Positions 15,622-64,000 of a DNA stretch of 64,000 nucleotides are shown in pieces; position 1 is the stretch's first letter, and the number at the start of each line of letters is the position of its first letter. The position numbers and the translations under genes are program-made. Below the pieces are notes generated by a model, which saw only the letters and a list, made by a program, of their open reading frames with translations, had not been told where the DNA came from and made no database searches. This DNA comes from a bacterium (GTDB lineage: Bacteria > UBA8248 > JACPRG01 > G963555815). Location: contig OZ244653.1 in the NCBI GenBank assembly GCA_965218795.1, positions 3,616,001 to 3,680,000 of the forward strand, given 5' to 3'.

Positions 15622-15752
15622 GGCACGGCCTGCTCCGGTTTCGCCGGGCACAGGCGTTGGATTCATGTAAGATACCCTCCTCCAGCCCGGCTTCGGCGCC
15701 TTGAAGGCGCCGCAAAACGCTGAGGCCTGTTGCCTCCAGAATGTCCTCTCAC
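15622..15752 (-). repeat. Copy of dispersed ~130-bp repeat family
   Basis: ggcacggcctgctccggtttcgccgggcaca..gataccctcctccagcccggct shared with 36028-36097; ends match the 47.6-48.0 kb units in reverse. Confidence 0.8.
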
Positions 15753-15817
15753 CCTTTTTGGTCTTGCCCCCCGGAAAAACTTTGGAAATGATACGCTTGA
15801 CTGGTCAGGTCTTTTTT

Positions 15818-16046
15818 CTGGATTCCCGCTTCCGCGGGAATGACAGGCTGTTGTACGTGGGCCTCGTTTGTCATTCCTGCGCAAGCAGGAACCCACTCTC
15901 CGACTGAAACACTCGGGGACAGGCTCCGCGGGAATGACCCCCGCCTGAAACCGTTGGGGCGGGGGCGCTGGGGGACCGGCATGGTTCTGGTGATCATTCC
16001 CGCCCCCGACTCAAGCCTTCGGGGACAGGCTGCAACGGGAATCCAT
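15818..16046. repeat. Cluster of REP-like palindromes (GTCATTCCCGC..GCGGGAATCCA type)
   Basis: ctggattcccgcttccgcgggaatgaca (15818-15845), inverted tgtcattcctgcgcaagcaggaaccca (15869-15895), plus two interrupted copies. Confidence 0.8.
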
Positions 16047-16573
16047 CTCGACGGAGAAATCGACTTACGCGGCGCCTGACGATCTCGAGGCGCGGTACGG
16101 GTCTACGGCAATCTCCGAAGAATGATACCCCTGGCTGGTCAAGCGTATCATTCCCAAAACTTTCCTTTCGCTGCGCAAGTGGCGGTGTATGCCTGTGCCT
16201 GGGTCGCAGTCTGCGGCAATCTCGCGGCGGTGTCCCCTTGTGGCTGACTCTGGGATGGCCGCATGGGTGACGGGCTTCGGCTTCATATACGCCTGCCTGG
16301 ATGACGACTTCGACCGTTCAGAGGAGGTGCGCGCTCCATCCCCGCGCGGTTCGGCATTGCAAGCGCCCTGCGGCTCTCCGCAATTCTGCATCCCGTCACC
16401 ATTTTTCCTTTCTCGAGGCGGGCAGATCGGGTAACCTTGGGGAATCTATTGGATTGGCTGGCGGGTAGCGGGATTCTGGTCTGTGAGCATCTCCTGGCGA
16501 GGCTCACCGATCTGTCGCGGGCAAATTTTTTTCGTTCTTTGACCTGAACGCCTGGTTCAGTGTCGTCGTCGGG

Positions 16574-17605
16574 TTGGGGGTGGTCGCTGATGTCCTCTGG
16601 CGTTCGCATGGGCGAAAAGACCTCCGATGGGGAAGGGGGAAGAGGTTGAGATTCCGTGGATTGGCCGTGAGACTGGTCGTGCTGTTCTTGATGGGCGGCA
16701 CCGGATTACTGTTGAAAGCCGGAGTGGCCCGGGGCGCGGAGAAAGAGATTCGCCTGGGCATCCTGCCCATTGTCGACGCGCTTCCCTACATCATCATCTC
16801 CGATAAGGGGCTCGACCGGAAACACGGTTTCCGGTTCATCACCTTTCCGTTCCAGAGCGCGCTGGAGCGGGACGCGGCGCTGACCTCCGGTTCCGCCGAT
16901 GGCGGCCTGAGCGATATGATCACGGCCACTGTCATGGTCTCGCGGAATGTCGACGTCGCGGTCGCCGCGCTCCTTCTGGGCGCGGTGGGGAAGGAAGGCC
17001 CGTTTTACATCCTGGGGTCCCCCAAGGGCGGCCCGGCGACCTTGAGCGCGCTGAAGGGCATGCCCATTGGGATTTCCTCGAACACGATCATCCAGTACGT
17101 AACGGACCGCATGCTGCAGGCCAGGGGATTCGGACCGGACGATATCAAGACGGTAGAGGTCAAGAAGATCCCTTTGCGGTTCCAGATGCTCATGACCGGC
17201 CAGATCGGAGCCGCGACACTGCCCGATCCGCTGGCAACGCTCGCCATCGCCAAAGGGGCGAAGCCCCTCGCCAACGATGTCGCTGACAACCTGTCCCAGT
17301 CCATCACCATGTTCACCGGCCGGGCCATCCGGGCCAAGACGTCGACGATGAAGGCCTACGCCCGCGCTTACAACGAGGCGGTGGACGCGATCAACGCGGA
17401 CCCCGATTCCTGGAAGGGCCTCCTCGTCAAGAAGGCGCGTCTCCCCAAGCCCATCCTGAACAGTTATTCCGTGGTCCCGTTCCCGAGGATTCAGCTCCCG
17501 TCGCGGGAGAAGGCGGAAGACGTCATCCGGTGGGCAAAAGGGAAAAAGCTCCTGAAGGATCCCGTGACGTACGAGAAGCTGACTACAAAGATCCTGTTGG
17601 ATTGA
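16574..17605 (+). CDS. NitT/TauT-family ABC transporter substrate-binding protein (true start probably ~16667-16690)
   Basis: IRLGILPIVDALP, FQSALERDAAL, IGISSNTIIQY, IPLRFQML..GAATLPDPLA; next to the cognate ATPase and permease. Confidence 0.82.
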   Translation: MGVVADVLWRSHGRKDLRWGRGKRLRFRGLAVRLVVLFLMGGTGLLLKAGVARGAEKEIRLGILPIVDALPYIIISDKGLDRKHGFRFITFPFQSALERDAALTSGSADGGLSDMITATVMVSRNVDVAVAALLLGAVGKEGPFYILGSPKGGPATLSALKGMPIGISSNTIIQYVTDRMLQARGFGPDDIKTVEVKKIPLRFQMLMTGQIGAATLPDPLATLAIAKGAKPLANDVADNLSQSITMFTGRAIRAKTSTMKAYARAYNEAVDAINADPDSWKGLLVKKARLPKPILNSYSVVPFPRIQLPSREKAEDVIRWAKGKKLLKDPVTYEKLTTKILLD

Positions 17606-17629
17606 GTGGCTCCCAAGAGCGGGAAAACC

Positions 17630-17824
17630 CAGGGAGATTCTTGGGGAGGCAACGTACCTCTACTGCGATTTCGCATCTCACCGATAATTGTTTCCGTTCC
17701 GCGCTTGATCCACACGCAGCCAGCCAATCCGCCCTTCACCGCGAGCAGGCCGCGTCGCAGGCGCGGCCGTCAAAAGTTTTTGAAGGGGGCCACAGGGGGA
17801 ACCATTTTCAAAATGTTCCCCCTG
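17630..17824 (+). repeat. Composite ~195-bp repeat element with imperfect terminal inverted repeats
   Basis: ggaggcaacg at 17645, gagcaggccgcg at 17743, then aaaagtttt..ggggaaccattttcaaaatgttcccc; same layout as 49697-49900. Confidence 0.65.
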
Positions 17825-17902
17825 ACTGACGAACTTGCTTTCAAACCTTGATGTAGACACCCTGCTCTCCCTGTTTTTACTGTGGAACTATCCGTTGAAT
17901 CC

Positions 17903-18652
17903 ATGATCCAAGTCGAGCATCTCTCCTTCGCTTACGGTGATCATCCCGTCCTGGAGGACATCACCTTTTCCGTGCCCCCTGGGGGCAGCCTGGCGGTCAT
18001 CGGACCCTCCGGGTGCGGGAAGACCACCCTGCTCTACAACTTGGCGGGCCTGCGGACTCCTGTCGCCGGCCGGGTGAGGATCGGCGGGGCCTTGATCCGC
18101 GGTCCGCGGGACAAAACCGCAGTCATTCTCCAACACTACGGCCTCTTCCCCTGGAAGACTGTTTTCGAAAATGCCGCCCTCGGACTCCGGATTCGCGGGA
18201 CGCCAGCCGCGGGGCGCATGCAGCGGGTCACCGCGATCCTCGAAGAACTGGGAATCGCCGCCCTTCGGGACCGGTATCCCAGCCAGATCTCGGGCGGTCA
18301 GCGGCAGCGCGTCGCCATCGCGCGCGCCCTGGCTATGGACCCCGACCTGTTGATCATGGACGAGCCGCTCTCCTCATTGGACGCCCTGACCCGTGAGGCG
18401 CACCAAAACCTCCTGCTGTCGCTTTGGCGGGAGAAGGGAATGACGCTGGTCCTCGTGAGTCACAGCATTACCGAGGCGGCCTACCTGGGCCAGCAGGTTG
18501 CGATTCTGTCCGACGGGCCGGCCCGGATCAAGGAAATCCTCGACAATTCCCGCGTGGGCGAGGAAGACTACCGGAGCCACCCGGACTATCACGACATCTG
18601 CACCCGGCTTCGGGGTCTGCTGAGAGGAGCGATGGATGAGGCGGTGGGTTAG
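17903..18652 (+). CDS. NitT/TauT-family ABC transporter ATP-binding protein
   Basis: GPSGCGKTT, LFPWKTV, ISGGQRQR, LIMDEPLSSLD. Confidence 0.9.
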   Translation: MIQVEHLSFAYGDHPVLEDITFSVPPGGSLAVIGPSGCGKTTLLYNLAGLRTPVAGRVRIGGALIRGPRDKTAVILQHYGLFPWKTVFENAALGLRIRGTPAAGRMQRVTAILEELGIAALRDRYPSQISGGQRQRVAIARALAMDPDLLIMDEPLSSLDALTREAHQNLLLSLWREKGMTLVLVSHSITEAAYLGQQVAILSDGPARIKEILDNSRVGEEDYRSHPDYHDICTRLRGLLRGAMDEAVG

Positions 18653-19373
18653 GTACCTCTTGACGGCGGCTGTGTTGATCCTCTTGTGGGAGCTGGTGGC
18701 GCTGGCCCTGAAGAACGAGGCGCTTCCGGAGCCCTGGCGGGTCGTGATTCAGTTTTTTGCTCTCCTTGCCGCCGATCTCCCCGTGCATTTCGGCGTCAGC
18801 GTCTATCGGGTTGCGGCGGCCGTCGTGTTCGCCGTCGCCGCGGGCCTGCCGCTGGGTCTGTTGATGGGCCGTCTCCCCAAGGCGGACGCCTACATGGCCC
18901 CCGCCGTCTACCTGACCTATCCCATCCCGAAGATTGTCCTCTTGCCCATCATTCTCCTGTTTTTGGGACTGGGGGACGCGTCGAAGATCGCCGTGATCGC
19001 CCTCATCCTGTTTTTCCAAATCCTGGTGACTGTCCGGGATGCAGTCCGCGGGATCGACGAGGAGTATTTCCTGTCGGTCCGCTCGCTCAACGCACGGGGT
19101 TGGGATGTCTTGCGGCACGTCGTCCTGCCCGCGACCGTGGCGGAGCTCCTGACCGCCCTTCGGATCAGCGTTGGAACATCGGTGGCCGTCCTGTTCTTCG
19201 TCGAGACCATCGGCGCCCGCCGGGGTTTGGGCTATTTCATTCAGGACGCCTGGGCCCGGGTGAATTATCAGGAGATGTACGCGGGCATTCTCGCCATGAG
19301 CCTTCTTGGCGTTTTCCTCTACGAGGTTCTGGAACAGGCCGAAAAGCGGGCCTGCCGCTGGAAGCGAGTGTGA
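18636..19373 (+). CDS. NitT/TauT-family ABC transporter permease
   Basis: Hydrophobic; YPIPKIVLLP, HVVLPA, GLGYFIQDAW..MYAGI; overlaps the ATPase stop. Confidence 0.9.
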   Translation: MRRWVRYLLTAAVLILLWELVALALKNEALPEPWRVVIQFFALLAADLPVHFGVSVYRVAAAVVFAVAAGLPLGLLMGRLPKADAYMAPAVYLTYPIPKIVLLPIILLFLGLGDASKIAVIALILFFQILVTVRDAVRGIDEEYFLSVRSLNARGWDVLRHVVLPATVAELLTALRISVGTSVAVLFFVETIGARRGLGYFIQDAWARVNYQEMYAGILAMSLLGVFLYEVLEQAEKRACRWKRV

Positions 19374-19634
19374 GAGAACGGCTTTGCGGCCCCCTGAATC
19401 TTCCGAAGCGATGCAATAATTTGCGAGGGGCGCTTTTGGAAGGTGACGCCCCTCTCTCGCAACAAGGTTTCTTGGCAAAGTAACAGAGTAACAGGTGGAC
19501 CCGCCTCCACATCGTAAAAAGACCCGTTCTCCCATCGTGCGCTGCTCGCACGATTCGGAGAACCACGCATTCCGCCCTGCCCTGCTGGTCATGGACGGCC
19601 TAAATCACCTATAATCAACGAATTGCGCCATAAA

Positions 19635-19661
19635 TTAGCACTCCGTCCTGGGGAGTGCCAA
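19635..19661. promoter_or_regulatory. CIRCE operator (HrcA binding site)
   Basis: TTAGCACTC-cgtcctggg-GAGTGCCAA, one mismatch to TTAGCACTC-N9-GAGTGCTAA; TATAAT at 19610-19615 just upstream. Confidence 0.85.
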
Positions 19662-19922
19662 TAATCTCTTGATTCATGTTTGCGGATCGATTATATATTC
19701 TCTCAAAGGATTGAGGGTAAAGCGGGATCGGGTCATGCCTGTGGGGTGAGGCGCTCAAATGGTCTGATTCGATGTCCTTTATCCGAATCGAAGAATTAAA
19801 AATTTCTAATCTCATTGCTGATCTCCCCGTTGGACCTAAGTATCGGGGAACTCGGAAAGACTCGAGGCGGCGTCTTTCGGGACGTTCGTCCATTTGAAGA
19901 TGAGCACAGGGGAAGAACTGGC

Positions 19923-21314
19923 GTGCGCCGAACCTTAAGGAACCTTGCCTTTGCAGGTATTGCCGCCGCCACGATCCTGGCGGCCGGGACCGGGTCGGCC
20001 GAGAAGCGGCCCGACAGCTTTGCTGATCTCGTGGAGCGTCTGAAGCCCACCGTCGTCAACATTCAGGTGACCATCGTCCAGCGGGGGGGCAGCCCTTTCC
20101 AAAGGCGGAGCCCCTTCGGCGGGCGACCCGACGATCCGTTTGAGAAGTTTTTCAAGCGCTTCTTCGGCGATCAGCCCCCACGCGAGTTTCGAAACCGAGC
20201 CATCGGCTCCGGGTTCATCATCAGCCCGGACGGATACATCGTCACGAACAATCACGTGGTCGAGAGGGCCAACGAAATCAAGGTCAAGCTGGACGACGGG
20301 AAGGAATACAAGGCGAAGCTGATCGGCCGAGACCCGAAAACCGATCTCGCCCTCATCAAGGTCGAGCCGAAGAAATCCGTGCCCTTCACGGAGTTCGGTG
20401 ATTCCGATGAGTTGCGGGTCGGCGATTGGGTGATGGCGATAGGAAACCCGTTCGGCCTGTCCCACACCGTCACGGCGGGCATCGTGAGCGCGAAAGGCCG
20501 TGTCATCGGGCAGGGGCCGTATGACGATTTCATCCAGACCGACGCCTCGATCAACCAGGGCAACTCGGGCGGACCTCTGTTCGACACGAAGGGTAAAGTG
20601 GTGGGAATCAACACGGCCATCATCGCCGGGGGAACCGGTATCGGATTCGCGATTCCCGCCAACATGGCCAAAAAGCTCATCAATCAGCTTCGGGAAACCG
20701 GCACTGTGGTGCGCGGTTTCCTGGGAGTCCGGATTCAAAACCTGACCCCGCAGCTGGCCAAGCGTTTCGGTACGGAGAAGGCCGAAGGGGCCCTGGTTTC
20801 CGACTTGACGAAAGACTCCCCCGCCGCCCGGGCCGGCGTTCGGCAGGGAGATGTGATCGTCGAATTTGACGGCCTGAAGATTCAGAACGTGTCCGATTTG
20901 GTCCGGAAGGTCGGTGCGACTGCGGTCGATAAGACGGTGAAAATGAAGGTGTTGCGCGAGGGGAAGGGAAAGGTCCTGGATGTCAAGGTCGGCAAGCTCG
21001 CCGAGGAGCCCAGTGCGGTCGCGTCGGTCGGCACCCCGGGAAAGTTGGGCCTGACGATTCGCCCGGTTCCCGCTGAGCGGGCCACTGAGCTCGGACTCAG
21101 AGCCGGTCAAGGCGTCCTGGTGACCGAGGTGGTTGCCGCAAGTCCTGCCGCCCGGGCGGGGATCCGCGCGGGCGACATCATTCTGGAAGTCAACGGGAAG
21201 GCCATTCGGGTGCTCGCCGACCTCAACGAGGCCGTGTCCAAGGGCAAGGAGGACCCGCTATTTTACATTCAGCGGGGCGAGAGCAAACTGTACACCGTCG
21301 TCCCCAAGGGGTGA
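19923..21314 (+). CDS. DegP/DegQ (HtrA) periplasmic serine protease with two PDZ domains
   Basis: Signal peptide; GSGFII, TNNHVV, DLALIK, IQTDASINQGNSGGPL; two PDZ repeats. Confidence 0.93.
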   Translation: MRRTLRNLAFAGIAAATILAAGTGSAEKRPDSFADLVERLKPTVVNIQVTIVQRGGSPFQRRSPFGGRPDDPFEKFFKRFFGDQPPREFRNRAIGSGFIISPDGYIVTNNHVVERANEIKVKLDDGKEYKAKLIGRDPKTDLALIKVEPKKSVPFTEFGDSDELRVGDWVMAIGNPFGLSHTVTAGIVSAKGRVIGQGPYDDFIQTDASINQGNSGGPLFDTKGKVVGINTAIIAGGTGIGFAIPANMAKKLINQLRETGTVVRGFLGVRIQNLTPQLAKRFGTEKAEGALVSDLTKDSPAARAGVRQGDVIVEFDGLKIQNVSDLVRKVGATAVDKTVKMKVLREGKGKVLDVKVGKLAEEPSAVASVGTPGKLGLTIRPVPAERATELGLRAGQGVLVTEVVAASPAARAGIRAGDIILEVNGKAIRVLADLNEAVSKGKEDPLFYIQRGESKLYTVVPKG

Positions 21315-21328
21315 GAGGGTCTTCGGTC

Positions 21329-21841: not shown

Positions 21842-21843
21842 GC

Positions 21844-22920: not shown

Positions 22921-23007
22921 TACCCGCCGGGCGCTTGAGGCCCGGGCGCGGCGTTCGCATTCACCCGTTACACGGCCTTTGAGCCCTGGTTGGGGAGGAC
23001 AAACAGA

Positions 23008-36021: not shown

Positions 36022-36135
36022 GGGGCAGGCACGGCCTGCTCCGGTTTCGCCGGGCACAAGACTTCCGTTCAGTTCGATACCCTCCTCCAGCCCGGCTGCG
36101 GTACTTTTGAGAAGCCCGGAAATCGCGGAGGACCG
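36022..36135 (-). repeat. Copy of dispersed repeat family
   Basis: ggggcaggcacggcctgctccggtttcgccg is the reverse complement of the 3' end of the 47.6-48.0 kb units (2 mismatches) and near-identical to 15622 onward. Confidence 0.8.
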
Positions 36136-36214
36136 TCGCAGACGAAAGGGAGAGCCCCCGCTTCGCTCGGACAGGCTCCGCCCCTCCCTGAAAATCCTGG
36201 AGGCGCGTTCTCTT

Positions 36215-37327: not shown

Positions 37328-37518
37328 TGTCCTCTAAATCTTCTTTCCGTGCGATTTTACATTGCAAGGAGGTCTTTTTTATGGGACGAACGGCAACCGG
37401 GGCTGCAAGCGGTGGGAAGCGCGTTGCGGCGAGCCAGCTTGCCGAGCATCCACTGAGCGTTCTGGAGTTGGTGCACGAACTGAGCAACGTCTCGGAGGCC
37501 TGCCCCCGAGTATTGTAG
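37328..37518 (+). mobile_element. IS481-family transposase 5' remnant
   Basis: aaggagg + ATG 37381; QLAEHPLSVLELVHELSNVSEAC resembles the IS481 N-terminal HTH (RLSVLELA..LGNVSEAC); stops after 45 codons; TGT at 37328. Confidence 0.6.
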
Positions 37519-37526
37519 TCGGGAAA

Positions 37527-37694
37527 TGGATTCCTGCTACAGCCTGCCAGCTTACCCCCCCCTGAATTCCTGCCTGCGCAGGAATGACAGTCAGGGGCAG
37601 GGGGCGTGTCCCCCAGTGTTTTAGTCGAGGCAGGAATGACAGAGCAGGACCATGCAACCCCCCGTCTTGTCATTCCCGCGCAGGCGGGAATCCA
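37527..37694. repeat. Second cluster of REP-like palindromes
   Basis: tgaattcctgcctgcgcaggaatgaca (37563-37589), gcaggaatgaca (37630-37641), inverted tgtcattcccgcgcaggcgggaatcca (37668-37694). Confidence 0.8.
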
Positions 37695-44321: not shown

Positions 44322-44366
44322 GGGGGGACATTTTGAAAACCGTCCCCCCTCGAAAACTTTCGTTTC
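44322..44366 (-). repeat. Partial copy of the GGGGGACATTTTGAAAA hairpin module
   Basis: ggggggacattttgaaaaccgtccccctcgaaaactttcgtttc is the reverse complement of 49848-49899 with a short internal deletion. Confidence 0.7.
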
Positions 44367-44859
44367 CCAATCGTGGCGGGCATAAAGGCCCGCCACGATT
44401 GGAATAAGCGCAAAACCCGGGCGGACACTTTTGATGATTGCCGCGAAGCGTCCCGAACGGCGTGAGGGAGCTATCAAGCTCGAAACTTTTTGTTTTTGAA
44501 CGGATTGACAAAAAATTCCCCTATTGGAAGAAGGTTCTTCGCGCGGCTCGATGACTTCGGGTCGTTGACCCCTCGCTCAGAATGACATGGGGGCTGCATC
44601 ACGGGCCTCGACATCGTTTTTCCGCAGCCTGTCATGCGCTCCTCCCCGATTTCAGCCCTCTTCAATTTTTTTTGAACCCTTTTTGCCGTAATACCCTTCA
44701 AACATGCCGCTCCCGTATGGGACAATTGTGCGGCCGGGTGAATCCATGATCTCCGTGGTTCCGCGCGATTGATTCCGGCATGAGGAGGAATTGCGGGCGG
44801 CCTCCTGTTGACGACTTCATCGTTTGAGGCCCCGGTCTGTGTCTGGGAAGAGATATTCG

Positions 44860-46254: not shown

Positions 46255-46345
46255 CAGCGGCGGGTCCGGACGGAAGATCCGGAGAAATGCCCCTCATTTG
46301 ACTTGATCTGCGGGGCGGTCTGCGGTCCTGCATGAACGGCAATCC

Positions 46346-46379
46346 AAAAAAGCCCCGCACGGTTTCCCGCGCGAGGCTC
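46346..46379 (-). terminator. Rho-independent terminator of the LLM gene
   Basis: Minus strand gagcctcgcgcgg-gaaa-ccgtgcggggctt followed by a T-run, about 20 nt after the stop. Confidence 0.75.
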
Positions 46380-46400
46380 GATGACTTCGGCTCCTCCGGT

Positions 46401-47411
46401 CTAATTCGGCGCGAACAAATCCAGCAGTCTTTGCGCCTGATGCGGCTGGGCCGGCCGGACCACTGGAAGCTGAACACCCGCCTCGCGGAACTTCTCCACC
46501 CGCGCCAACACCTGCTCCGGGGTCCCCGAGGCCGTGAGATTTTCCACGTAGGATTCCGGAATCGTCTTGGCGAGCAGTTCTTTGCCCCCCGTTTCCTCCG
46601 CCTCGCGGAACTTCGGAAAGTCCTCCTTGTTGAGCCACGGGTCTCCGACGCGGATGCGCTGCCCGGCGTTGAAATCGATCTGGATCCGGTTGAACTTGCT
46701 GGCGACCTCCCAGCGAATCTGCTCGATGGCTTCGTCGCGGCTGTCTTCAACCGACGATACGATGATGCAGCCGACCCCGAAATCGCTGAAATCCCTCCCG
46801 GCGGCTTCGCAGGATTCCTTGCAGATCCGGATGGCGTTCTGGATGTACTCGGGCGAGGTGATTGCGTTGAGCATGACGCCGTCGCCGATCTCGCCGGCAA
46901 GCTTCAGTCCGGTCTTGCTCGTGGCCGCCACCCACATGGGAATGTGCTCCCGGTAGGGCTTCCACGCCAGCTCGGCCCGGTCCAGCTTGATGGTTTCCCC
47001 TTCCCAGACAATCTGCTTCTCGCCCCGGAGGAACTTGCGGATGACTTCGACGTAGTCCTTGAGGGACCCCACCGGGTCTTCGGGCTCGAGGGAGTTCCAG
47101 ACGGCATGGGTCCGTGTGCAGGCACCGGGGGCCAGGATGAAGCGACCTTCGGAGAGCTCGTCGATCGTGGCCACGGTCTGGGCGTGGATGATCGGTGTCC
47201 TCAGCCGGACGATCTGCGTGCAGCCGATGTTGATCTTTTTGGTGGCCAAGGCGAAGGCCGCCATCGCCGAGACGGAGTCGCGCATCACCTCGATGGTTTC
47301 CGAAAAAAAACCCATCTCATAGCCGCGCTCGTCGGCCTGTCGGACGAAATCCGCCATCTCGCGGACGTTCAATTTGGGCGAGTAACCCTGAGCAAAGCCG
47401 ATTCTTGTCAT
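46401..47411 (-). CDS. LLM-class flavin-dependent oxidoreductase (Mer-like)
   Basis: RD....AAFALATKKI..G..RTP...AQTVATIDELSEGRFIL..G, IPMWVAA....LKLAGEIGDGV, GTPEQV. Confidence 0.85.
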   Translation of the reverse strand: MTRIGFAQGYSPKLNVREMADFVRQADERGYEMGFFSETIEVMRDSVSAMAAFALATKKINIGCTQIVRLRTPIIHAQTVATIDELSEGRFILAPGACTRTHAVWNSLEPEDPVGSLKDYVEVIRKFLRGEKQIVWEGETIKLDRAELAWKPYREHIPMWVAATSKTGLKLAGEIGDGVMLNAITSPEYIQNAIRICKESCEAAGRDFSDFGVGCIIVSSVEDSRDEAIEQIRWEVASKFNRIQIDFNAGQRIRVGDPWLNKEDFPKFREAEETGGKELLAKTIPESYVENLTASGTPEQVLARVEKFREAGVQLPVVRPAQPHQAQRLLDLFAPN

Positions 47412-47570
47412 TGAATTCAAATCCTTTTCCACCGGCCCCCACGGATCGGTTGATGGGACGGAACAGAGGCCCACGCCTCTACGCCGCCGGCTCCGGGGAG
47501 CACGCAACGCTCCGCCCTCGTAATTTGGCCGAAATTGACCATTAGGCTGGAAACAAAGAACCTTCTTCTA

Positions 47571-47971
47571 CCCTTTGAGAGGATCGCTGTCAAGCCGTTC
47601 TGGGGCTGAGTGGTTCCCGGTTTCCTGGGGAGGTCGGTCTGGGGTACGTATTGGAGGCAACGCGCCTTTGCGAGCTCACGGCGCCTGGAGGCGCCGCCGC
47701 CGCGCTCAAAAAGAGCATCGGATATCGACAACTCGAATGCGCGGCGAAAACGGAGCAGGCCGCGCCTGCCCCTTTGAGGAGGTCGCTGTCAAGCCGTTCG
47801 GGGGCTGAGTGACTCCCGGTTTCCTGGGGAGGTCGGTCTGGGGTGCGTTTTGGAGGCAACGCGCCTTTGCGAACCCACGGCGCCTGGAGGCGCCGCAGCC
47901 GCGCTCAAAAAGAGCATCGGATATCGACAACTCAAATGCGCGGCGAAAACGGAGCAGGCCGCGCCTGCCCC
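47571..47971 (+). repeat. Tandem duplication, 2 x 199 bp, containing the dispersed repeat
   Basis: Units start ccctttgag at 47571 and 47770; about 12 substitutions counted by eye. Confidence 0.95.
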
Positions 47972-48009: not shown

Positions 48010-48089
48010 TAGAACAGGTTCTGTTTCATAAATCCGCACAAGCCGGTAAAATCACGCCTTCACACGTTGCCGAAAACAGACCTGTTCTA
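48010..48089. mobile_element. 80-bp MITE-like element
   Basis: tagaacaggttctgtttc ... gaaaacagacctgttcta imperfect terminal inverted repeats. Confidence 0.4.
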
Positions 48090-48101
48090 TCGGGGGTGAA
48101 A

Positions 48102-49696: not shown

Positions 49697-49900
49697 TTGG
49701 GGACGGGCGCAACGGCAACGTGCCGCTCCGATTTCGCCTCCCTGCGGGCGGCAGAGGCGGGCGGATAGAAACATCCTCCCCTGTGGCCAGGGACGTTATT
49801 CGGTCGCAGGGGCCGGTTTCCGTATCGGCCCGTCATTCTTGTTGGACGAAACGAAAGTTTTCGAGGGGGTCTGGGGGACAGTTTTCAAAATGTCCCCCAG
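49697..49900 (+). repeat. Composite ~200-bp repeat element
   Basis: ggcaacgtgccgctccgatttcgc near the left end; aaagttttcgagggggtctgggggacagttttcaaaatgtcccccag at the right end. Confidence 0.6.
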
Positions 49901-49930: not shown

Positions 49931-50335
49931 ATGACCCGAACCGCCGTCAATCCCGCAGCCATCGGTGTGCCGGTGGCGCCTTATTCGCACGCCATCAAGA
50001 CCACCGGGAGCGAGATCCTCTTTCTCGCCGGTCAGGTGCCGATCGACAAAGACGGAAGCACCGTCGGTGTCGGAGATTTCGAAGCCCAGGCCCGTTGCGT
50101 CTTCGATTTGCTGACCGAAATCCTGAAAGCCGGCGGAATGGATTGGGGAAACGTGGCGAAGTTGAACGTATTCATGACGCGCCGGGAGGATCGGGAAAGG
50201 ATCACCGCCCTGCGGGAGGAATTGTTTTCCGAATGGTTCCCCAGCGGCGATTACCCCATCAGCACGCTGCTCTTCATCTCCGGTCTTTACCGTGAAGAGT
50301 TTCTGATTGAGATTGAGGCCATCGCCGTCCGCTGA
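49931..50335 (+). CDS. RidA/YjgF-family protein (copy 1)
   Basis: PYSHA, LFLAGQVP, QA..VF, YPISTL, LIEIEAIA. Confidence 0.88.
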   Translation: MTRTAVNPAAIGVPVAPYSHAIKTTGSEILFLAGQVPIDKDGSTVGVGDFEAQARCVFDLLTEILKAGGMDWGNVAKLNVFMTRREDRERITALREELFSEWFPSGDYPISTLLFISGLYREEFLIEIEAIAVR

Positions 50336-51500: not shown

Positions 51501-51902
51501 GTGAAAGAAATGTTAAACCCTGATTCGGTGGCAAGGCCCGTTGCCCCCTATTCCAATGTCGCCCTGACCGACGCCCGGGAGACTCTGTACATCGCAGGCC
51601 AGTTTCCGGTGGACAAGGACGGCTGCCTCATCAGGCCAGGCGATATCGAGGCTCAGGCCCAGGCCTGTTTTGACGCCATCGGCCGGATTTTGGGAGAGGT
51701 TGAGATGGCCTGGACGAACGTGGTCAAATTCAATGTGTTCATGACGCGCCGGGAGGATCGGGACGGATTTACCGCCCTGCGGCAAAGAATCTTTCCCCAA
51801 ATGTTCCCGGCCGGCGACTATCCCATCAGCACGCTGATCTTCATCAACGGCCTCTATCACGAGGATTACCTCATCGAGATCGACGCGACCGCGGTCAGGT
51901 GA
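51501..51902 (+). CDS. RidA/YjgF-family protein (copy 2)
   Basis: PYS, LYIAGQFP, YPISTL, LIEIDATA; aggag RBS. Confidence 0.88.
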   Translation: MKEMLNPDSVARPVAPYSNVALTDARETLYIAGQFPVDKDGCLIRPGDIEAQAQACFDAIGRILGEVEMAWTNVVKFNVFMTRREDRDGFTALRQRIFPQMFPAGDYPISTLIFINGLYHEDYLIEIDATAVR

Positions 51903-55315: not shown

Positions 55316-55325
55316 AGCGCCAATC

Positions 55326-55664: not shown

Positions 55665-55671
55665 GAAGAAC

Positions 55672-55865: not shown

Positions 55866-55958
55866 CGAACTCTCTCCTTTAGGTGGACTAAATAATAGAC
55901 TAGGGGACGCCCTGTCGTCAACCTGCCCTCACGCTTGCTACGATGGCTGCAAACCCCA

Positions 55959-56060
55959 TCCTGATTATGCACGAAGCTCAGGTTGGGGGCACGGGATTCC
56001 CGGGATCGCCGCCTTCCAGGAAACCGGCGGCCACAACCTGAGCTTCGTGCGTAATCAGGA
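55959..56060. mobile_element. 102-bp MITE with 27-bp terminal inverted repeats and 6-bp target duplication
   Basis: tcctgattatgcacgaagctcaggttg / caacctgagcttcgtgcgtaatcagga (1 mismatch); acccca at 55953-55958 and 56061-56066. Confidence 0.85.
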
Positions 56061-56207
56061 ACCCCAATTTCGTCAATCGAGACTGGACAATCTAAGCTGG
56101 ATGGCTATCGCGACCCGCTCAGCTGCCTTTTCGCTCTATGATCACAACCGAAAACCCTCAACCCACTTGGCCCTAAACCAGGGGGAAGGTCACGCAGAAA
56201 CGTTATG

Positions 56208-57122
56208 TTACCCGCAATCTGTCATCTCTAAGATTTCATCCAGAGAATATCCACAATCCAATAGTTCGTTTGCCATCTTTCCCTTTTTTATGTCACCTAA
56301 AGATACTCTCTCTAGGGAAAAATCCAAGTCATACATCGGCACTTGCCAAAATCGCAACAGTGTCTGTACATGACGGTCTGTTGCATTGTCTCTCACTAGA
56401 CCTTCCTCAAACAATTTTCTTACATTCTCTCGCAAAAGAACGTCCCATCGGGGATACTCTTGTGCGTTAGACTGGCTAATCTTTGTAAAGAAATATTTCC
56501 CCCAAATATTTGATGTGATCGACACCCCTCTGGGCGTGAAAAAGCCAAGACAACACATAGCATCTACAACTTCAAGAGCGGGCATAAAGCTTTCTAGAGA
56601 ATCGATATTCAACGGCGCATGCCAGTAGGCTATTCCATCATCGGTAGATGCAACGTCTGCGTACAGGTTAGCTTCTCGCTCCCATAGCTCCCACTGTGGG
56701 ACAATGGGAGCTCCCGGACCGTCAATCCGAAGTGATTTTCGCATAAAGTCAGCATATTCCCTCTGCAATTCAACGACATCATACCCGGTCACCGAAGCCG
56801 CTTCCGCATAGATCAAACGCACATGGTGGTTGTAGAACCACTTGCACATCTTCGGAAGACATTCATTGAGAAGGGAATCAGGACAACGCACAACGTCCAT
56901 AAGGATAAGTATTTTTGCTGCCTCTTCCTTAGAAAATCCGTTCAAAACACATGCCTCGCGTGGACTGTCTCTTATCTGGAGCGCTGCGTTTCTATAGTTT
57001 CTTGCGCTGGACAGGATGATTGGAAATCCCTCAGCAAGGAAGGATAACTGCTTCTTTCGGGACATTTGGCACAATGATTTCAATTTTCTGAATCCTGTTG
57101 AAGTCATTGAACTCTCTTTCAC
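56208..57122 (-). CDS. AbiV-like (HEPN) abortive infection protein
   Basis: A....N...A......R...L.....EEAAKILILMDVVRCP..FYNH..RLIY..RE..LYAD pattern; low GC; next to an R-M remnant. Confidence 0.6.
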   Translation of the reverse strand: MKESSMTSTGFRKLKSLCQMSRKKQLSFLAEGFPIILSSARNYRNAALQIRDSPREACVLNGFSKEEAAKILILMDVVRCPDSLLNECLPKMCKWFYNHHVRLIYAEAASVTGYDVVELQREYADFMRKSLRIDGPGAPIVPQWELWEREANLYADVASTDDGIAYWHAPLNIDSLESFMPALEVVDAMCCLGFFTPRGVSITSNIWGKYFFTKISQSNAQEYPRWDVLLRENVRKLFEEGLVRDNATDRHVQTLLRFWQVPMYDLDFSLERVSLGDIKKGKMANELLDCGYSLDEILEMTDCG

Positions 57123-57337
57123 TTATCCTGGTGCCTTCGGGTCGCTTTCATTCTAACCCCCAGAGGGCCGCGTAAATTCTCATAGAGCGTGAACAGGTAC
57201 TCGATACGTTCTCGCTCGCTGACGAATTCAGCACGTCGATAAAGGCGGTCCACGGCGCGGTCGAGAGCTTGGTGCGCACGGCGCAGGTTCGGCGGCATGA
57301 GGTCGAGGTCGTAGAGGCCGGCCAGCGTCGCATCCGG
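57119..57337 (-). pseudogene. C-terminal remnant of an MmeI-like type IIL restriction-modification enzyme
   Basis: PDATLAGLYDLDLMPPNLRRAHQALDRAVDRLYR..F.SERERIEYLFTLYE matches the MmeI-family tail. Confidence 0.8.
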
Positions 57338-57466
57338 GCGTACGGCCCGAGCGAACCAGCTCAACCATCTGGCGCCGGTATTCCGGCGCGTAGGGTGAAT
57401 GAGTTTTCGCCATCTGAACACCTCCTGCGCACAGTCTGAAGGTGTCCACTAAAACGGTCAACTCGA
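57338..57466 (-). mobile_element. IS3-family left end plus start of orfA
   Basis: gagttgaccgttttagtggacacc IR-like end, ggagg RBS, MAKTHSPYAPEYRRQMVELVRSGRTP (ATG 57413). Confidence 0.75.
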
Positions 57467-57637
57467 CACGCAACGGGGCGGGAGACGTTTCCCCACATGC
57501 GCGGCGGACGCTGCCGCTCAAGCGCCGCTCGGGCTAACGGCCGGATACACAACGGCTTGTATCGCCCGAGGGCTTGAGCGGAACGGAAGCACGATGCAGA
57601 CGCCAGTCGGCGTTTCACTCTCACCCCACGCAGCCCG

Positions 57638-58927
57638 CTAGCGATTTGGTCCGGAACCGCCGCCGGAGGCCAGAGGGAAGGATCGGGATTTTGTGAACCA
57701 AAACCGTTTTTGGAAGATCCCAAGGGGGAGCGCCAAATCCGTCTGGGTGGGACCGACGATTGAACCCTGCTGTATCTGATCCAATAGTTTCTGAACGTTT
57801 GGAAGGATGTCCCTTCGGTACCGGAAGGCCTCTTTGGCGAAGAGCACATAGGTTGAAACCCATTGCGATGTCGTAGATAGCCTTCCCGGTATCCCATATC
57901 GCCGGCCTTCCTCAATTCGCTTGCTGAGATCAGCGCCGCGTGCAGGGAACAGAACCTGGGCCTGGCCTTCGCTGTTGATGCGCAAGAGCAGGACGTATAT
58001 CGACTGCGTGGGGAGAAAGCTGATCAGATAGGATGCGGAGGCGTTGACGCTTGCCCCGTCCAGACCCTTGCGGCGGTGTCCATCGGCCTCTATCACCTCG
58101 TACCAGACGCTCAACGGGCTCCAGGTCCAATCCCTCGGCACAACGGGGAGGATATTTCGCTTCCGGGACGGGATGCGGCCGCTCACCTCTGTGTGCTGGA
58201 GAGAACCCAGAGGCAGCGTCACCCGGGCCCTGGCAACGGACAAGGTTCCCGTTGCCAGGGCCGGCGCCATCCGGAGGAGCTGGGCGCTGATGACCACGCG
58301 GTTTCCGAGGACTTGATAGCGGCCTCCTACAAGGGTATCCACTCCGCCGAGGGCGGCAGCGCGAATGCTGAAGTCGGGGCTGAGGGGTCTCATCCCAATC
58401 CGGTCTGGAACCCCCCTCATCGCCAAATCCTCTTCCCAAGCAACCATGAGATTTCTCGGGAATACCGGGCGGCCGCTGATTTTTCCGAGACTTTTCACCA
58501 GCCCGTTCTCCAATCGCTGAGAGAGCAAAGTTCTGTAGCCACTGGTGTCCAGCACACTGCCGACGGCGATTCGGCTCACCGGGACGATCAGGCTTCGGTA
58601 CCGCCCCAGTTTGAATTTTCCCCCTTCACTCCATAGGGTCTGCACAAGCTTGGCTGCCGCCGTTTCCGCGTCCTTCGCTATTCCGGGAATTTCAATCCAT
58701 TTTTCCTCATCCGGCGTTGGCTTGATGGCACAGGCGCATATGGTGAGACACAACGTCATCCAGCAGGAGGCCCTTCGTAATCTTCGGCTTCCGGTTGTCA
58801 AGGACCTCTCGGGCCGGAAAAATCGGCGGAACGAAGAAATGGAAAGTCGTTTTCTACCTTGTTTCAGCATTTTTCCCGTCCGGAACTCTTGGCGAAAATC
58901 CGCCGACTCCGCATGGGCGCTCGACAA
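57638..58927 (-). CDS. Putative lipoprotein, FlgO/CsgG-like domain plus DUF4384-like domain (start uncertain)
   Basis: Lipobox-like LTICAC; GGVDTLVGGRYQVLGNRVVISAQL; YVLLLRINSEGQAQVLFP. Confidence 0.55.
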   Translation of the reverse strand: MSSAHAESADFRQEFRTGKMLKQGRKRLSISSFRRFFRPERSLTTGSRRLRRASCWMTLCLTICACAIKPTPDEEKWIEIPGIAKDAETAAAKLVQTLWSEGGKFKLGRYRSLIVPVSRIAVGSVLDTSGYRTLLSQRLENGLVKSLGKISGRPVFPRNLMVAWEEDLAMRGVPDRIGMRPLSPDFSIRAAALGGVDTLVGGRYQVLGNRVVISAQLLRMAPALATGTLSVARARVTLPLGSLQHTEVSGRIPSRKRNILPVVPRDWTWSPLSVWYEVIEADGHRRKGLDGASVNASASYLISFLPTQSIYVLLLRINSEGQAQVLFPARGADLSKRIEEGRRYGIPGRLSTTSQWVSTYVLFAKEAFRYRRDILPNVQKLLDQIQQGSIVGPTQTDLALPLGIFQKRFWFTKSRSFPLASGGGSGPNR

Positions 58928-59139
58928 GGCCTTCTGCGCTCATCCCTTGCCGGGCGATGGTCGACGGGCTGGCGATTGAGTATTTTCGTTGCCATCTTGA
59001 ATATCCGTTGATTTTCAATGGGCGCAGGCCTCTTCATTGAACTTGACTGAACGGGACAAATTCATTAAAGTCCAATCTGGTTCCGTTGAGAAATCCTCAC
59101 TCCATTCTTGTGTTTTAATCAGACGGAACGCCATAGAGG

Positions 59140-59769
59140 ATGATCCAAGCCATCAACACGGATGCCGTCGTAAAGATATATTCCAGATATTCTTCCTTTT
59201 ACGACCTTTTGTTCAAGAACATTTTCTCCGAAGGCCGGGAAGTCGCCATCAAGCTTCTCGACATTCGTCCAGGAGAACGGGTCTTGGATGTGGGCGCGGG
59301 GACCGGTCTCTCTCTGCCTATTTTCCCCAACTGGTGCCAGGTTGTCGCGATGGACATCTCCGAGAAAATGTTGGCCCAGGCCGCCAAAAAAGTGGAAAAG
59401 TTCGGGCTCGAGAATGTCTCGTTGATGACCCAAGACGCCTGTCACACCAGCTTTCAGGATGACGCCTTCGATTGCGTATCCGCGGCGTATGTCGCCAGTG
59501 TCGTTCCTGACGCCAATGGATTGGTTGGGGAGATGAAGCGGGTCTGCCGGCCGGGGGGCCGCATCGTCTTCCTCAACCATTTCAAGAGCCAAAATCCAAT
59601 ATTGGCCCGGTTGGAAGAACTTTCCAACGGACTGTGGAACAAGATGGGCTGGAACTCCAACCTCGATCTCTGGAAATTGATCGAGGAGAACGACCTGAGG
59701 GTCGAACGCGTAGAGCACGTCAACATCTTTGGCTATTGGAAAGGTGTGCTCTGCATCAATGACAAATAA
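59140..59769 (+). CDS. Class I SAM methyltransferase, phosphatidylethanolamine N-methyltransferase (PmtA)-like
   Basis: YSRYSSFYDLLF, VLDVGAGTGLSL, YVASVVPD, RVCRPGGRIVFLNHF. Confidence 0.78.
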   Translation: MIQAINTDAVVKIYSRYSSFYDLLFKNIFSEGREVAIKLLDIRPGERVLDVGAGTGLSLPIFPNWCQVVAMDISEKMLAQAAKKVEKFGLENVSLMTQDACHTSFQDDAFDCVSAAYVASVVPDANGLVGEMKRVCRPGGRIVFLNHFKSQNPILARLEELSNGLWNKMGWNSNLDLWKLIEENDLRVERVEHVNIFGYWKGVLCINDK

Positions 59770-59830
59770 TCCCCTTCCTGTATTTCCCGAGTCCTTTCCG
59801 GGTTGCCCTGCTGCCGACTGAATCCGGGCC

Positions 59831-60765
59831 ATGGCCGTTCTGAACTGCCTGATGGATTGCGACCCGGGCGTTGACGACGCCCTGGCGCTGATACTGGCTC
59901 TCGGGCATCCGATACCCGTTTACTCGCAATTACGACCGTCGCGGGGAATGCGCCGCTTGAGGCCTGCACCCGAAACGCCCTCCGGGTGTTGGAGGCTGTG
60001 TCCCCTCAGCGGGCGCCTCCGGTGCACGAAGGGGCTGCCGCGCCCATCGACGGAAACGCTCGGGAGCGGGCCCTCCACGTTCACGGGGAGGATGGTTTGG
60101 GGGATCTCGCTCCCACGGTCTATCCGGAGCCGGCGGGCGGACCGGTTTCGCCGCCAGCGCCCAAGGCCATCCTGCAATACGCCGATGATTTTCCGGGCGA
60201 GGTGACATTGGTCGCTACCGGCCCGCTGACCAATCTGGCCCTGGCCGCGCGGGAAAAACCCGAGCGGTTACACCTCTTCCGGGAAATCGTCGTCATGGGC
60301 GGGGCCGTTCGTGTGCCTGGGAACGTGACGCCCCACGCCGAGTTCAACATCTGGTCCGACCCCGAGGCGTTGGCCATCCTTCTGGCATTGGGCGTTTCCC
60401 CTCTTCTCGTCCCTCTGGACGTGACGATGCAGGTCGTGTTGACGCCGGACCACCTCGAGCGTCTTCCGTTGCAAAACCCTCGAGCGCGTCTCGTCTTGGA
60501 CTGCACCCGAGGATACATGGCCTTTCACAACAAGACGCGGGGAGTAGACGGTTGTTTTCTGCATGATCCCCTGGCGCTCGGTGTCGCCATCGACTCCTCT
60601 TTCGTTGAAATAGAAGAAGTGTATCTGGACGTCACCACGAGCGAATCGGAGGTGAGGGGAAAAACCTTCGAAACGTCACCCGACCGGGGCCACCCCGCTC
60701 GGATATGTACCCGGGTGGATGCAGATCGATTTCTCGATTTCTTTTTGGACTGGATTTCCGTCTAG
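59831..60765 (+). pseudogene. Nucleoside hydrolase with a single 1-nt frameshift near 59910 (pseudogene or assembly error)
   Basis: DCDPGVDDALA in one frame; LLAITTVAGN..VHGEDGLG..GPLTNLA..MGG..AEFN..DPEA..HDP in another. Confidence 0.85.
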
Positions 60766-60822
60766 CCGGGAATCGGATTTCCTCATGGTGGGTTCAACTC
60801 GACCCATCGGATACCGTTTCCA

Positions 60823-61788
60823 TTGACTCCCGAAATCGTCGTCATCGGCAGCGCAAACCTCGACCGCGTGGTCGAAGCCCCCAGGCTGCCGATGCCTGGG
60901 GAGACGGTTCTGGGAGGTGAATATCGGGAATTCTTCGGGGGCAAGGGAGCGAACCAGGCGGTCGCCGCCCGAAAGGCAGCCGGGGCGTCCCTCCGCGCCG
61001 CCTTTGCGGGGAAGATCGGAACCGATGCGGGCGGAGAGAAGTACGTCCGGTACCTGGAGGCCGAAGGCCTGGACCTGACCTTCCTGGCGAAGGATGAGAA
61101 TGCCCCGACCGGTGTTGCGCTCATTGTGGTCGACCCGGGCGGAGAGAACCAGATCGCCGTCGCCCCGGGGGCCAACGCGCGGTTCTCCCCGCAGGATATG
61201 GAAGCGGCCGGAGAATGGATTCGCGGAGCCCGCATCCTTCTGGCGCAGCTTGAAGTTCCGCTGGAAACCGTCCGGACGGCTTTCCGGCTTGGCCGGGAAG
61301 CCGGCGTGAGGACTGTGCTGAACCCGTCACCCGCGTCACCCGGAGCCGAGCTTGAGGAATTATTGGGCTGGACCGACCTCGTCGTTCTCAACCGGGGGGA
61401 GGCGGAGGCCCTCGCCGGCCGGCCGGCGGATTCCGCCGGGCCCGCGCGCGAGGCCTGCGAAATTCTGGCGGCCATGGGGCCGGAGGGTGTCGTGATCACC
61501 CTGGGCGGCGACGGCGCGGTGTTTTCCGGCCCGCGGGGTTCCGGCCACGTCGAGTCCGTTGCCGTCGAGGTCCGCGATACCACGGGCGCCGGCGATGCCT
61601 TTTGCGGCGCCCTGGCCGTCGCATTGTCGGAGGGCGGGGATCTTGAAACCGCTGTCCGATTCGCCTCCGCCGCGGCGGCCCTGGCCTGCACGGTTCCTGG
61701 GGCGCAGCCCTCTCTCCCAATCCGTCCGGACATCGACAAAATGCTTGCAGGGCCCGATCATTCCGCCGCGCGGCGGTCCACTCCTTGA
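60823..61788 (+). CDS. rbsK: Ribokinase
   Basis: GSANLD, GGKGANQAVAA, QLEVP, LNPSPA, DTTGAGDAFCGA, GAQPSLP. Confidence 0.9.
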   Translation: MTPEIVVIGSANLDRVVEAPRLPMPGETVLGGEYREFFGGKGANQAVAARKAAGASLRAAFAGKIGTDAGGEKYVRYLEAEGLDLTFLAKDENAPTGVALIVVDPGGENQIAVAPGANARFSPQDMEAAGEWIRGARILLAQLEVPLETVRTAFRLGREAGVRTVLNPSPASPGAELEELLGWTDLVVLNRGEAEALAGRPADSAGPAREACEILAAMGPEGVVITLGGDGAVFSGPRGSGHVESVAVEVRDTTGAGDAFCGALAVALSEGGDLETAVRFASAAAALACTVPGAQPSLPIRPDIDKMLAGPDHSAARRSTP

Positions 61789-61857
61789 AGACGGCTCGTC
61801 CGTCTCCACCTTGCGGGCATGCGGGGCAGATGCTACGATTCCAACCGCTTGCAATGA

Positions 61858-62943
61858 ATGCGTCTTGCCGATTCTCCGGATTCCCGAGACGTACCGGATG
61901 ACGGGCGGAACGGGGGAATTTCTTTCTTGTCTGCAACCAACGGCGGCCAGCACCAGCTGCAGATCAGCGGTCTCCAGACCCACTTCTTCACCTCGGACGG
62001 CGTAGCCCGGGCGGTCGATGGCGTGTCTCTCACCCTGGATGAGGGAGAGACGCTTTGCGTCGTGGGCGAGTCCGGCTGCGGGAAGACGGTTACGGCCCTG
62101 TCGATCCTTCGTCTGATTCCCGATCCGCCCGGCAGAATCGTCGGCGGTGAAATCCGCTTTCAAGGCAAGGATCTCCTCACCTTCTCGGACCGGGAGATCC
62201 GGGCCGTCCGGGGGAACGACATCTCGATGATCTTCCAGGAGCCCATGACCTCCCTGAACCCCGTGTTCTCGGTGGGTTACCAAATCGTGGAGGCCGTCAC
62301 CCTCCACCAGGGCCTGGGCAGCCGCGACGCCTGGGACAAGGCGGTGGAGATGCTCGACAAGGTCGGCATCCCGGACCCGGCTCAGCGGGCCCGCGAGTAC
62401 CCCCACCAGCTTTCGGGCGGAATGCGGCAGCGGGCGATGATCGCCATGGCCCTTTCGTGCAATCCGAAGATCCTGATCGCCGATGAGCCCACCACCGCGC
62501 TGGACGTCACCATCCAGGCCCAAATCATCGAGCTGATGCAGCGTCTCCAGGAGGATTTCGGGACGGCCATCATCATGATCACCCACGACCTCGGCGTCGT
62601 GGCCGAGATGGCGAACCGGGTGGCGGTGATGTACGCGGGCGTGGTGGTCGAGGAGGGAAGCGCCGAGCAGATATTCACCGAGCCCAGGCACCCTTACACC
62701 CAGGGCCTGCTGGAGTCGGTTCCCCGGATCGACGCGGGCCGCGGCGGGCGGCTCCAGGAGATTCCAGGCGTCGTCCCCAGCCTGTACCGCGTTCCCAAGG
62801 GCTGCAAGTTCGAGCCCCGGTGCCCCCATGCCGCGGACCGCTGCCGGGACAGGGAGCCTGCGCTGTTTCAAATCTCCGACGGCCATACGGCCCGCTGCTG
62901 GCTGGAAGACCCCGTGGATCCCATTCCCAGGCGAAGCGCCTGA
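61858..62943 (+). CDS. Peptide/nickel ABC transporter ATP-binding protein (OppD/DppD-like)
   Basis: [53 protein letters not shown]. Confidence 0.92.
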
Positions 62944-62958
62944 AAGGTTCTTTCCCGC

Positions 62959-63945
62959 ATGGCAGACAATGTTCCGAAAGATGACGTTCTCCTCGAAGTC
63001 GAGGACCTGAAAAAATACTTCCCTGTGCGGGGCGGCGTCTTCGGTAAGAAGGTCGGAGAGGTCAAAGCCGTTGACGGCATCAGCTTCTCCATCCAAAAGG
63101 GGGAAACCCTGGGCCTCGTTGGCGAGAGCGGCTCCGGAAAGTCCACCGCCGGCCGATCCATCCTCCGTCTGATCGAACCCACCAGCGGGCAGGTCCGCTT
63201 CAACGGCCAGAATGTATTCAAGCTCGGCAAGGAAGAACTTCGCGAAATGCGCCGCCGGATGCAGATCATCTTTCAGGACCCCTACGCCTCCTTGAACCCC
63301 CGGATGACCGTGGGCAGCATCGTGGGCGAGCCCTTCGCCATCCACAAGATCGCCGCCGGGCGGGACCGCGTGGAGCGTGTGGAGGCGCTGCTCATGCGCG
63401 TGGGGCTGTCGGCCGACCACATGCGGCGCTACCCCCACGAGTTCAGCGGCGGGCAGCGGCAGCGAATCGGCATCGCCCGGGCCCTGGCGCTCCATCCCGA
63501 GTTCATCATCGGCGACGAGCCGGTCTCGGCCCTGGACGTCTCCATCCAGGCGCAGGTGATCAATCTGCTGGAGGAGCTCCAACAAGAGATGGGCCTGAGC
63601 TACCTGATCATCGCCCACGACCTCAGCGTGGTCCGGCACATCAGCCACCGGATAGCGGTGATGTACCTCGGAAAGCTCGTCGAGATCGCCGGCAATGAGC
63701 AGTTGTACAATAACCCCCTCCACCCCTATACGGAGGCCCTGCTGTCGGCCGTGCCCGTTCCCGATCCCAGGATGAAGAAGGAACGTATCGTCCTGACGGG
63801 CGATATCCCGAGCCCCATCAACCCGCCCTCCGGCTGCGTTTTCCATACCCGCTGCCCCATTGCCGAAGACCGCTGCAAAATCGAAATCCCCGAGCTCCGC
63901 AAACTCGATGACGGCCGCCTTCTGGCCTGTCACCTGAGGGGATGA
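62959..63945 (+). CDS. Peptide/nickel ABC transporter ATP-binding protein (OppF/DppF-like)
   Basis: [53 protein letters not shown]. Confidence 0.92.
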
Positions 63946-63950
63946 GAGGA

Positions 63951-64000
63951 TTTGGGGGACATGTTGGCGGCAACGCGCCTGTCTGCGTGCGACGCACAGG
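63951..64000 (+). repeat. Start of another dispersed-repeat copy (runs off the window)
   Basis: tttgggggacatgttggcggcaacgcgcct. Confidence 0.6.

Follow-up and report, generated by a model that had tools for sequence, protein, structure and literature searches.

A 64,000-nt stretch of bacterial DNA (contig OZ244653.1, positions 3,616,001 to 3,680,000; GTDB lineage UBA8248), referred to here as the window, carries a family of gene-free, hairpin-rich dispersed repeats between its genes, which is built around two hairpin motifs designated A and B. This A/B family is real. It appears undescribed and lineage-specific, yet of the familiar palindromic-repeat kind, in a genome crowded with other repeats, and it is probably no new kind of element. 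The reading favoured here, which has about an even chance of being correct, is that the copies are lineage-restricted, non-autonomous palindromic repeats resembling the doublets of REP (repetitive extragenic palindrome) sequences known as REPINs and the bacterial interspersed mosaic elements (BIMEs).

Occurrence and anatomy of the A/B repeats

The A core, GGMGGCAACRNRCC, occurs at six sites in the window (2928 and 15724 on the minus strand; 17645, 47653, 47852 and 63966 on the plus strand; shuffle mean 0.04), and the B motif occurs at five (15624 and 36030, minus; 17743, 47753 and 47952, plus; shuffle mean 0.05). Both motifs stand together at 15.6, 17.6, 47.6 and 47.8 kb, where their starts are 102, 98, 100 and 100 nt apart, respectively, and this joint pattern was found in none of 100 shuffles. 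A preliminary description of the window, made from the letters alone, had placed B about 98-102 nt after A at these four loci and had noted a further B at 36.0 kb, and both statements are borne out. As the A, B and A..B search patterns were derived from the copies themselves, the shuffle figures are optimistic, although the margin is still large. All 15 module sites tested lie outside the gene map, with both strands represented; the map is approximate (about 16% of the window is non-coding), and some of its genes at 30-33 kb were later placed on the opposite strand. The family is distinct from the GTCATTCC REP family, as had been stated earlier, since none of the seven exact sites of the latter in the window overlaps any A or B core.

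Four copies, at 15.6, 36.0, 47.6 and 47.8 kb, can be aligned end to end and form subfamily I. Their interiors are identical at 54-82 of 85-87 columns (z 7.1-18.5), and none of 300 shuffles scored as high in any of the six pairs. The interior is homologous across these copies and is therefore diverged rather than free. The fold of subfamily I comprises the A hairpin, a GGCGCC hairpin (P4, decayed at 36.0 kb), a stem P5 and the B hairpin; the GGCGCC hairpin reported earlier at 15.7, 47.7 and 47.9 kb is present. Across the four copies, pairing is 100% in the P5 stem and 97% in the B stem, whereas the loop of P5 diverges, and the P5 stem contains one C-G/G-C double change. The 47.6/47.8 kb pair is a 199-nt tandem duplication placed between divergent genes, of which a luciferase-like gene lies on the minus strand.

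The copies at 17.6 and 49.7 kb constitute subfamily II, with a common 14-nt extension after A and a module C at the end, consisting of the AAAGTTTT motif, then G-runs, and then a hairpin closed by a C-run. The 17.6 kb copy keeps A, B and their spacing around an interior unrelated to the others (z -0.7 to 1.6 in five pairs), and the similarity of the 49.7 kb interior to the others is weak (z 1.0-3.2). Conserved ends around a variable core, as originally proposed for the whole element, thus describe the 17.6 kb copy only; the others are ordinary diverged subfamilies, with a homologous interior in four copies. A covariance model (CM) built from subfamily I found the 2.9 kb copy (E 1e-7), barely the 49.7 kb copy (E 0.14) and the copy cut at 63.9 kb (E 6.7), and the 17.6 kb copy was not among its 49 matches in the window. 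A further module, R, which is a hairpin after TGAGTG, lies 42-46 nt upstream of A at 17.6, 47.6 and 47.8 kb; its pattern, drawn from the copies, has three matches in the window and none in 100 shuffles. GTGG stands at the hairpin foot of R in two of the three copies, and at 17.6 kb the first nine bases of R are able to pair with the start of module C. The GTGG-footed R, the G-run cap C and the tandem duplication had all been missed in the preliminary description. Its 27-nt consensus for A fits only three sites within three mismatches and leaves 17630 and 49697 unmatched even at eight substitutions. This consensus mixes modules, its first half also matching the reverse complement of C, and a supposed second A at 2884 is actually the P4 hairpin together with half of C in reverse.

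Read on the opposite strand, B resembles A, which makes an inverted hairpin pair the probable form of the unit. When B is reversed and aligned to A, four reversed B ends and nine A ends keep GGC-ACG-GCC and, after it, CG.TTTCGC in several rows. The covariance model aligned its own B end to the reversed A end of the 49.7 kb copy (E 0.008), and the same A end ranks first, second and second among non-self sites for three B queries (12,792 windows scored). These alignments are suggestive of A and B being related hairpins and of the unit being a diverged inverted pair around a structured spacer. The copies and modules are listed in Table 1.

Table 1. Positions of the A/B repeat copies and of separate modules within the window
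Feature	Position	Strand	Remarks
Short copy: A hairpin, P4-type hairpin, 3' half of module C; without P5 and B	2884..2960	-	CM of the four core copies 31.3 bits, E 1e-7; fold z -3.15
Subfamily I copy: A, P4 GGCGCC hairpin, P5 stem, B hairpin	15619..15750	-	B end 5 nt past gatC stop
Module R: TGAGTGG, then CTCCC..GGGAG hairpin, GTGG-footed, REP-like	17603..17636	+	TGA of the module ends the substrate-binding-protein gene as its stop codon
Subfamily II copy: A, unrelated interior, B then inverted half-B, then module C	17630..17822	+	
Possible solitary A-like hairpin, weak	19426..19454	+	blastn E 0.49; nhmmer E 3.6; alone not significant
Subfamily I copy, decayed A, ends able to pair mutually	36022..36186	-	alaS on one side, a DUF6665-like gene on the other
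Module C on its own (AAAGTTTT, G-run, hairpin), A and B being absent	44322..44366	-	
First 199-nt tandem unit	47571..47769	+	36 nt flank with minus-strand TTGACA hexamer, R 47607-47632, A 47640-47666, P4, P5, B 47753-47772
Second tandem unit, 187/199 identical (12 differences)	47770..47971	+	CCC microhomology at junction
Subfamily II copy: diverged A, long interior stem, module C	49697..49899	+	5 nt past a phytoene-dehydrogenase-like gene; CM 10.3 bits, E 0.14
Copy cut at window end; A hairpin	63951..64000	+	A hairpin 5 nt past oppF stop; 5' flank resembles reversed C end of the 49.7 kb copy

Nature and origin of the repeats

Among the published systems closest to the A/B family are palindromic repeats. 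REPINs are inverted doublets at fixed distances, which also form tandem units including flank (PMC3116915). REP dimers possess spacers of equal length but different or structured sequence, with termini supplying stop codons (PMC3733652), and REPs are defined by GT[AG]G at the hairpin foot, with atypical structures beside some enzyme subclasses (PMC6006769). Like REPINs, REP dimers and BIMEs, the A/B copies are intergenic in either orientation, contain what is probably an inverted hairpin pair at a fixed distance around a structured spacer, occur as tandem units with flank, display no target duplication and lie near stop codons, with one terminus giving the stop codon. The sharing of intergenic spacers with other repeat families also counts in favour of this relationship. 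The description of the element as an unrecognised kind was therefore overstated, the anatomy being that of described REP dimers and REPINs.

Several results weigh against a REPIN/BIME-like identity. The GTAG/GTGG/CGTC foot is absent at A and B themselves, and because this foot test failed the element was not filed as a member of a REP family despite its matching anatomy. Unlike REPINs, A and B lack a GTAG/CGTC foot while being dissimilar to each other, GTGG occurring only on the optional module R. The dispersed copies are 60-70% identical to one another, and as there are no near-identical dispersed copies, there is no sign of current mobility. No RAYT (REP-associated tyrosine transposase), transposase or reverse transcriptase family match was obtained in the window, neither for the scanned genes nor for 229 open frames that lie outside known genes. 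The resemblance between A and reversed B is only loose, and two sites in coding regions, at 16.9 and 10.2 kb, either exceed the score of the 49.7 kb match to reversed B or come within 2-3 points of it. Covariation among the four copies is not significant, none of five measures beating the control (51-194 of 500 shuffles), and the cores at 36.0 and 17.6 kb fold no better than shuffles (z +1.75 and -0.62).

In the favoured REPIN/BIME-like reading, the core consists of A and B as two probably related hairpins in inverted orientation, separated by about 100 nt, and the spacer between them contains one or two more stems; longer forms carry in addition the hairpin R with its GTGG foot, or the G-run cap C. 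The copies may have spread as folded single-stranded DNA by the action of an HUH enzyme of the RAYT/TnpA type encoded elsewhere; they would have been inserted into short spacers, diverged afterwards, and may now be decaying. Both the mobilising enzyme and the mobility are what we infer. Copies kept just past stop codons would form mRNA hairpins on either strand and may tune the stability of operon segments.

Regarding position, the start of six of the eight copies is no more than about 11 nt away from a stop codon, in line with the earlier observation on most copies; the 47.6/47.8 kb pair lies between divergent genes. The spacers at 2.9, 17.6, 36.0 and 49.7 kb are short and mostly filled by the element, with the larger remainder on the ribosome-binding side. 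Since the element fills most of a short spacer at these four loci, stop-codon proximity is weak evidence of targeting, and selection against disrupting the next gene accounts for the bias as well as targeting does. The orientation is mixed, being A-first at 17.6, 49.7 and 63.9 kb and B-first at 15.6 and 36.0 kb, with A on the minus strand at 2.9 kb.

The boundaries of the copies bear on an unlikely alternative, namely that the family represents decayed MITEs, miniature transposable elements with inverted repeats, in which A and B (or A and C) would be worn terminal inverted repeats used by a DDE transposase in trans. The ends are imperfect inverted repeats with copy-specific pairing, the left end of the 63.9 kb copy matches the reversed C end of the 49.7 kb copy at 85% over 27 nt, and the size falls within a 70-300 bp range (PMC3733652). 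Prokaryotic MITEs, including the insertion sequence (IS) IS110-type MITEPpu9/ssr9 (PMC3184786, PMC12288879), are likewise small, non-coding, structured and multi-copy, with tandem arrangement possible. However, no direct repeat beyond chance was found at any of seven candidate boundaries, whose positions are estimated (the best, 6 nt at 2.9 kb, is matched by 7% of random pairs), the left boundaries vary among copies, and the ends are themselves hairpins. Unlike in MITEs, neither sharp terminal repeats nor a target duplication nor a parent IS is identified for the A/B family.

A highly improbable variant would derive the repeats from IS110/IS1111 elements, as a MITEPpu9/ssr9-like non-autonomous module that circularises and inserts at REP-like hairpins. 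The tandem copy, the lack of target duplication and a TTGACA hexamer within the 199-nt unit, 17 nt from one of its ends, are consistent with this origin, as ssr9 has tandem copies, REP targets and a -35 hexamer at its right end (PMC12288879). The junction of the 199-nt unit nevertheless has no -10 hexamer, TTGACA would serve equally well as the promoter of the divergent luciferase-like gene, the 199-nt boundaries are missing from the other copies, and no shared dinucleotide core could be defined. In three copies, GTCAAGC stands exactly 64 nt upstream of the A core (15796, 47589 and 47788). It may be a 5' end, an HUH target, a promoter hexamer or a chance match; it is part of a separate inverted repeat at 15.8 kb and perhaps a promoter hexamer at 47.6 kb.

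Folding of the copies raises the question of function as RNA. The A-to-B strand folds with z below -1.9 in five of seven copies, and RNAalifold over eight copies retains just the 4-pair A hairpin. A multi-copy structured RNA (a 3' untranslated region element or a small RNA) maintained by selection on its fold is quite unlikely to explain the family, even though stems are conserved above loops, the fold z is lower on the A-to-B strand than on the opposite strand in six of seven copies, and in the 3' arm of P2 the tandem copies differ by two changes, both of which exchange wobble for Watson-Crick pairs or the reverse. The copies occur in both orientations relative to transcription, with one pair between divergent genes, the covariation is not significant, and no spread across GTDB species is detectable. 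Rfam gave no match in the window at the gathering score, and three sensitive sub-region searches yielded microRNA and long non-coding RNA noise far below threshold. The original proposal, a structured RNA or a single-stranded DNA element mobilised in trans, stands insofar as the repeat is a dispersed, structured, non-coding element needing a trans factor; a structured RNA is not favoured because both orientations occur, Rfam gives no match and covariation is not above control.

Integron attC sites have RYYYAAC..GTTRRRY ends and follow cassette genes. An attC identity was rejected for the A/B repeats, whose B end has no GTT core and whose neighbours are alaS, gatC and oppF. Readings as an attC site, a ribozyme, a retron or a group II intron were set aside on grounds of anatomy and of the empty Rfam searches.

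Beyond the window, a GTDB scan with the exact pattern A-N(72-102)-B returned 10 matches. Their lengths are scattered over 97-123 nt without interior similarity, at least one reading frame is open across nine of the 10, and the window profile scores none of them below E 0.75. They are read as chance matches owing to the open frames, scattered lengths and missing interior similarity. The exact A..B form is absent from the scanned GTDB species representatives, in a search whose pattern, being exact, would overlook relatives that have diverged. With blastn, four copies compared with plasmids and two with phages gave nothing except two Enterococcus matches to module C, and no description of these motifs was found in the literature searched, mostly freely accessible papers. 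Several repeat families also crowd the same intergenic regions in the multicopy nucleotide sequences of Geobacter (PMC2700814, PMC2996986), and the searchable supplementary files of these papers (12 of 15 and 12 of 19), in which alignments may be pictures, contained no motif match.

Module C and its resemblance to RRS

The forms capped by C recall the RRS/TRIP elements of Escherichia coli (PMC11194060; sequence NC_000913.3), which are likewise GC-rich, about 200 nt long and located between genes, with a branched stem followed by a G-run and a G-run hairpin with a C-run. It is very improbable that the A/B repeats are RRS-like chromosome-structure elements, whose C-capped forms would fold on the lagging-strand template and trigger gaps as E. 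coli RRS does. The geometry of the RRS terminal hairpin (G-run, G5, 14-20 nt, C5) is matched by C at two window sites, 17786-17822 and 49865-49898, and this geometry is present in seven of 11 RRS-family loci and both plasmid loci, and absent from all 10 chance loci of the GTDB scan. Both C and RRS had been viewed before the pattern was written, and one of 100 shuffles reached its raw count of three. RRS itself behaves as a dispersed repeat family, with up to 13 places in one record. In contrast to this similarity of shape, no sequence homology to the 222-bp RRS/TRIP is detectable. In all 20 strand tests the local alignments stay within shuffles, a profile built on 10 RRS copies matches none of the window copies, and the window covariance model has no significant RRS match. 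The G4Hunter score of C (1.8-2.0) is equalled by many ordinary sites, and the full cap occurs on just two of eight copies. In Klebsiella and Citrobacter records, RRS-family repeats are near-tandem or inverted neighbours (L016:1-82, L021:4-196).

The two Enterococcus matches are Rep3 plasmids (NZ_CP144491.1 and NZ_CP097037.1), in which a hairpin upstream of the iterons shares 83% identity with module C across some 52 nt (E 8e-4 and 3e-3). This hairpin, which bears no functional annotation, shares module C only, was found in just two of 72,556 plasmid records, and could reflect low-complexity convergence. It lies within a structured region directly upstream of the iterons and the Rep3 gene (L001:2850-3060, L002:2870-3060), for which there is no Rfam family. 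It could be imagined that the modules belong to an unrecognised cross-phylum class of single-strand DNA elements with a G-run/G-run/hairpin cap, including E. coli RRS and the Rep3-plasmid hairpin, although this reading has little probability of being correct. A small G-run/G-run hairpin of C-like shape is also located inside the 37.6 kb REP cluster of the window (37590-37615).

Neighbouring features and implications

Other repeats and gene remnants surround the A/B copies. Directly beside the 15.6 kb copy, a 34-nt inverted repeat (82%; 15776-15809 and 16130-16163) encloses a GTCATTCC-type REP cluster, an arrangement resembling REP dimers inserted in long palindromes (PMC3733652). Adjoining this repeat cluster is a frameshifted gene remnant (16190-16600), the scanned pieces of which gave no Pfam match. 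The remnant reads like a UbiA/MqnP prenyltransferase. A short frame beside another REP cluster (37381-37518) shows a possible resemblance to the start of an IS481 transposase and gave no Pfam match. The spacer of the solitary module C also holds a perfect long hairpin (44368-44403) and a second REP-like palindrome (44545-44590). AGAA-NN-TTCT type palindromes at 48010-48090, 47556-47570 and 44527-44540, near nucleoside- and pyrimidine-related genes and including a 16-nt inverted pair upstream of the 48.1 kb gene, are possible regulator sites. A 45-nt inverted repeat (55959-56060, 84% complementary) occupies a lower-GC region, which also contains an MmeI C-terminal fragment (57119-57421). Two Rid-family paralogues (49931-50335 and 51501-51902), 1.6 kb apart, are 74% identical over 198 nt, and the frame at 46332-47414 mirrors a real gene read on the opposite strand. 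The closest named homologue of a small protein encoded nearby is in a Nitrospinota metagenome-assembled genome (65% identity). For the gene at 36.2 kb, there are proteins with 95% identity.

On the favoured reading, the A/B family extends the known REP-like repeats by one untagged, modular family from a poorly known lineage, which is a modest addition. Finding the mobilising enzyme would tell whether a separate mobiliser serves REP-like elements that lack a GTAG or CGTC foot. Were the link to RRS true, the family would offer a handle on the origin of gap-triggering elements. If the cross-phylum class were true, an untagged form that is still modular would exist in this lineage, which would point to mobilisation by an enzyme different from the known RAYTs; RRS would then have a mobile origin, and dispersed copies would seed replication gaps.

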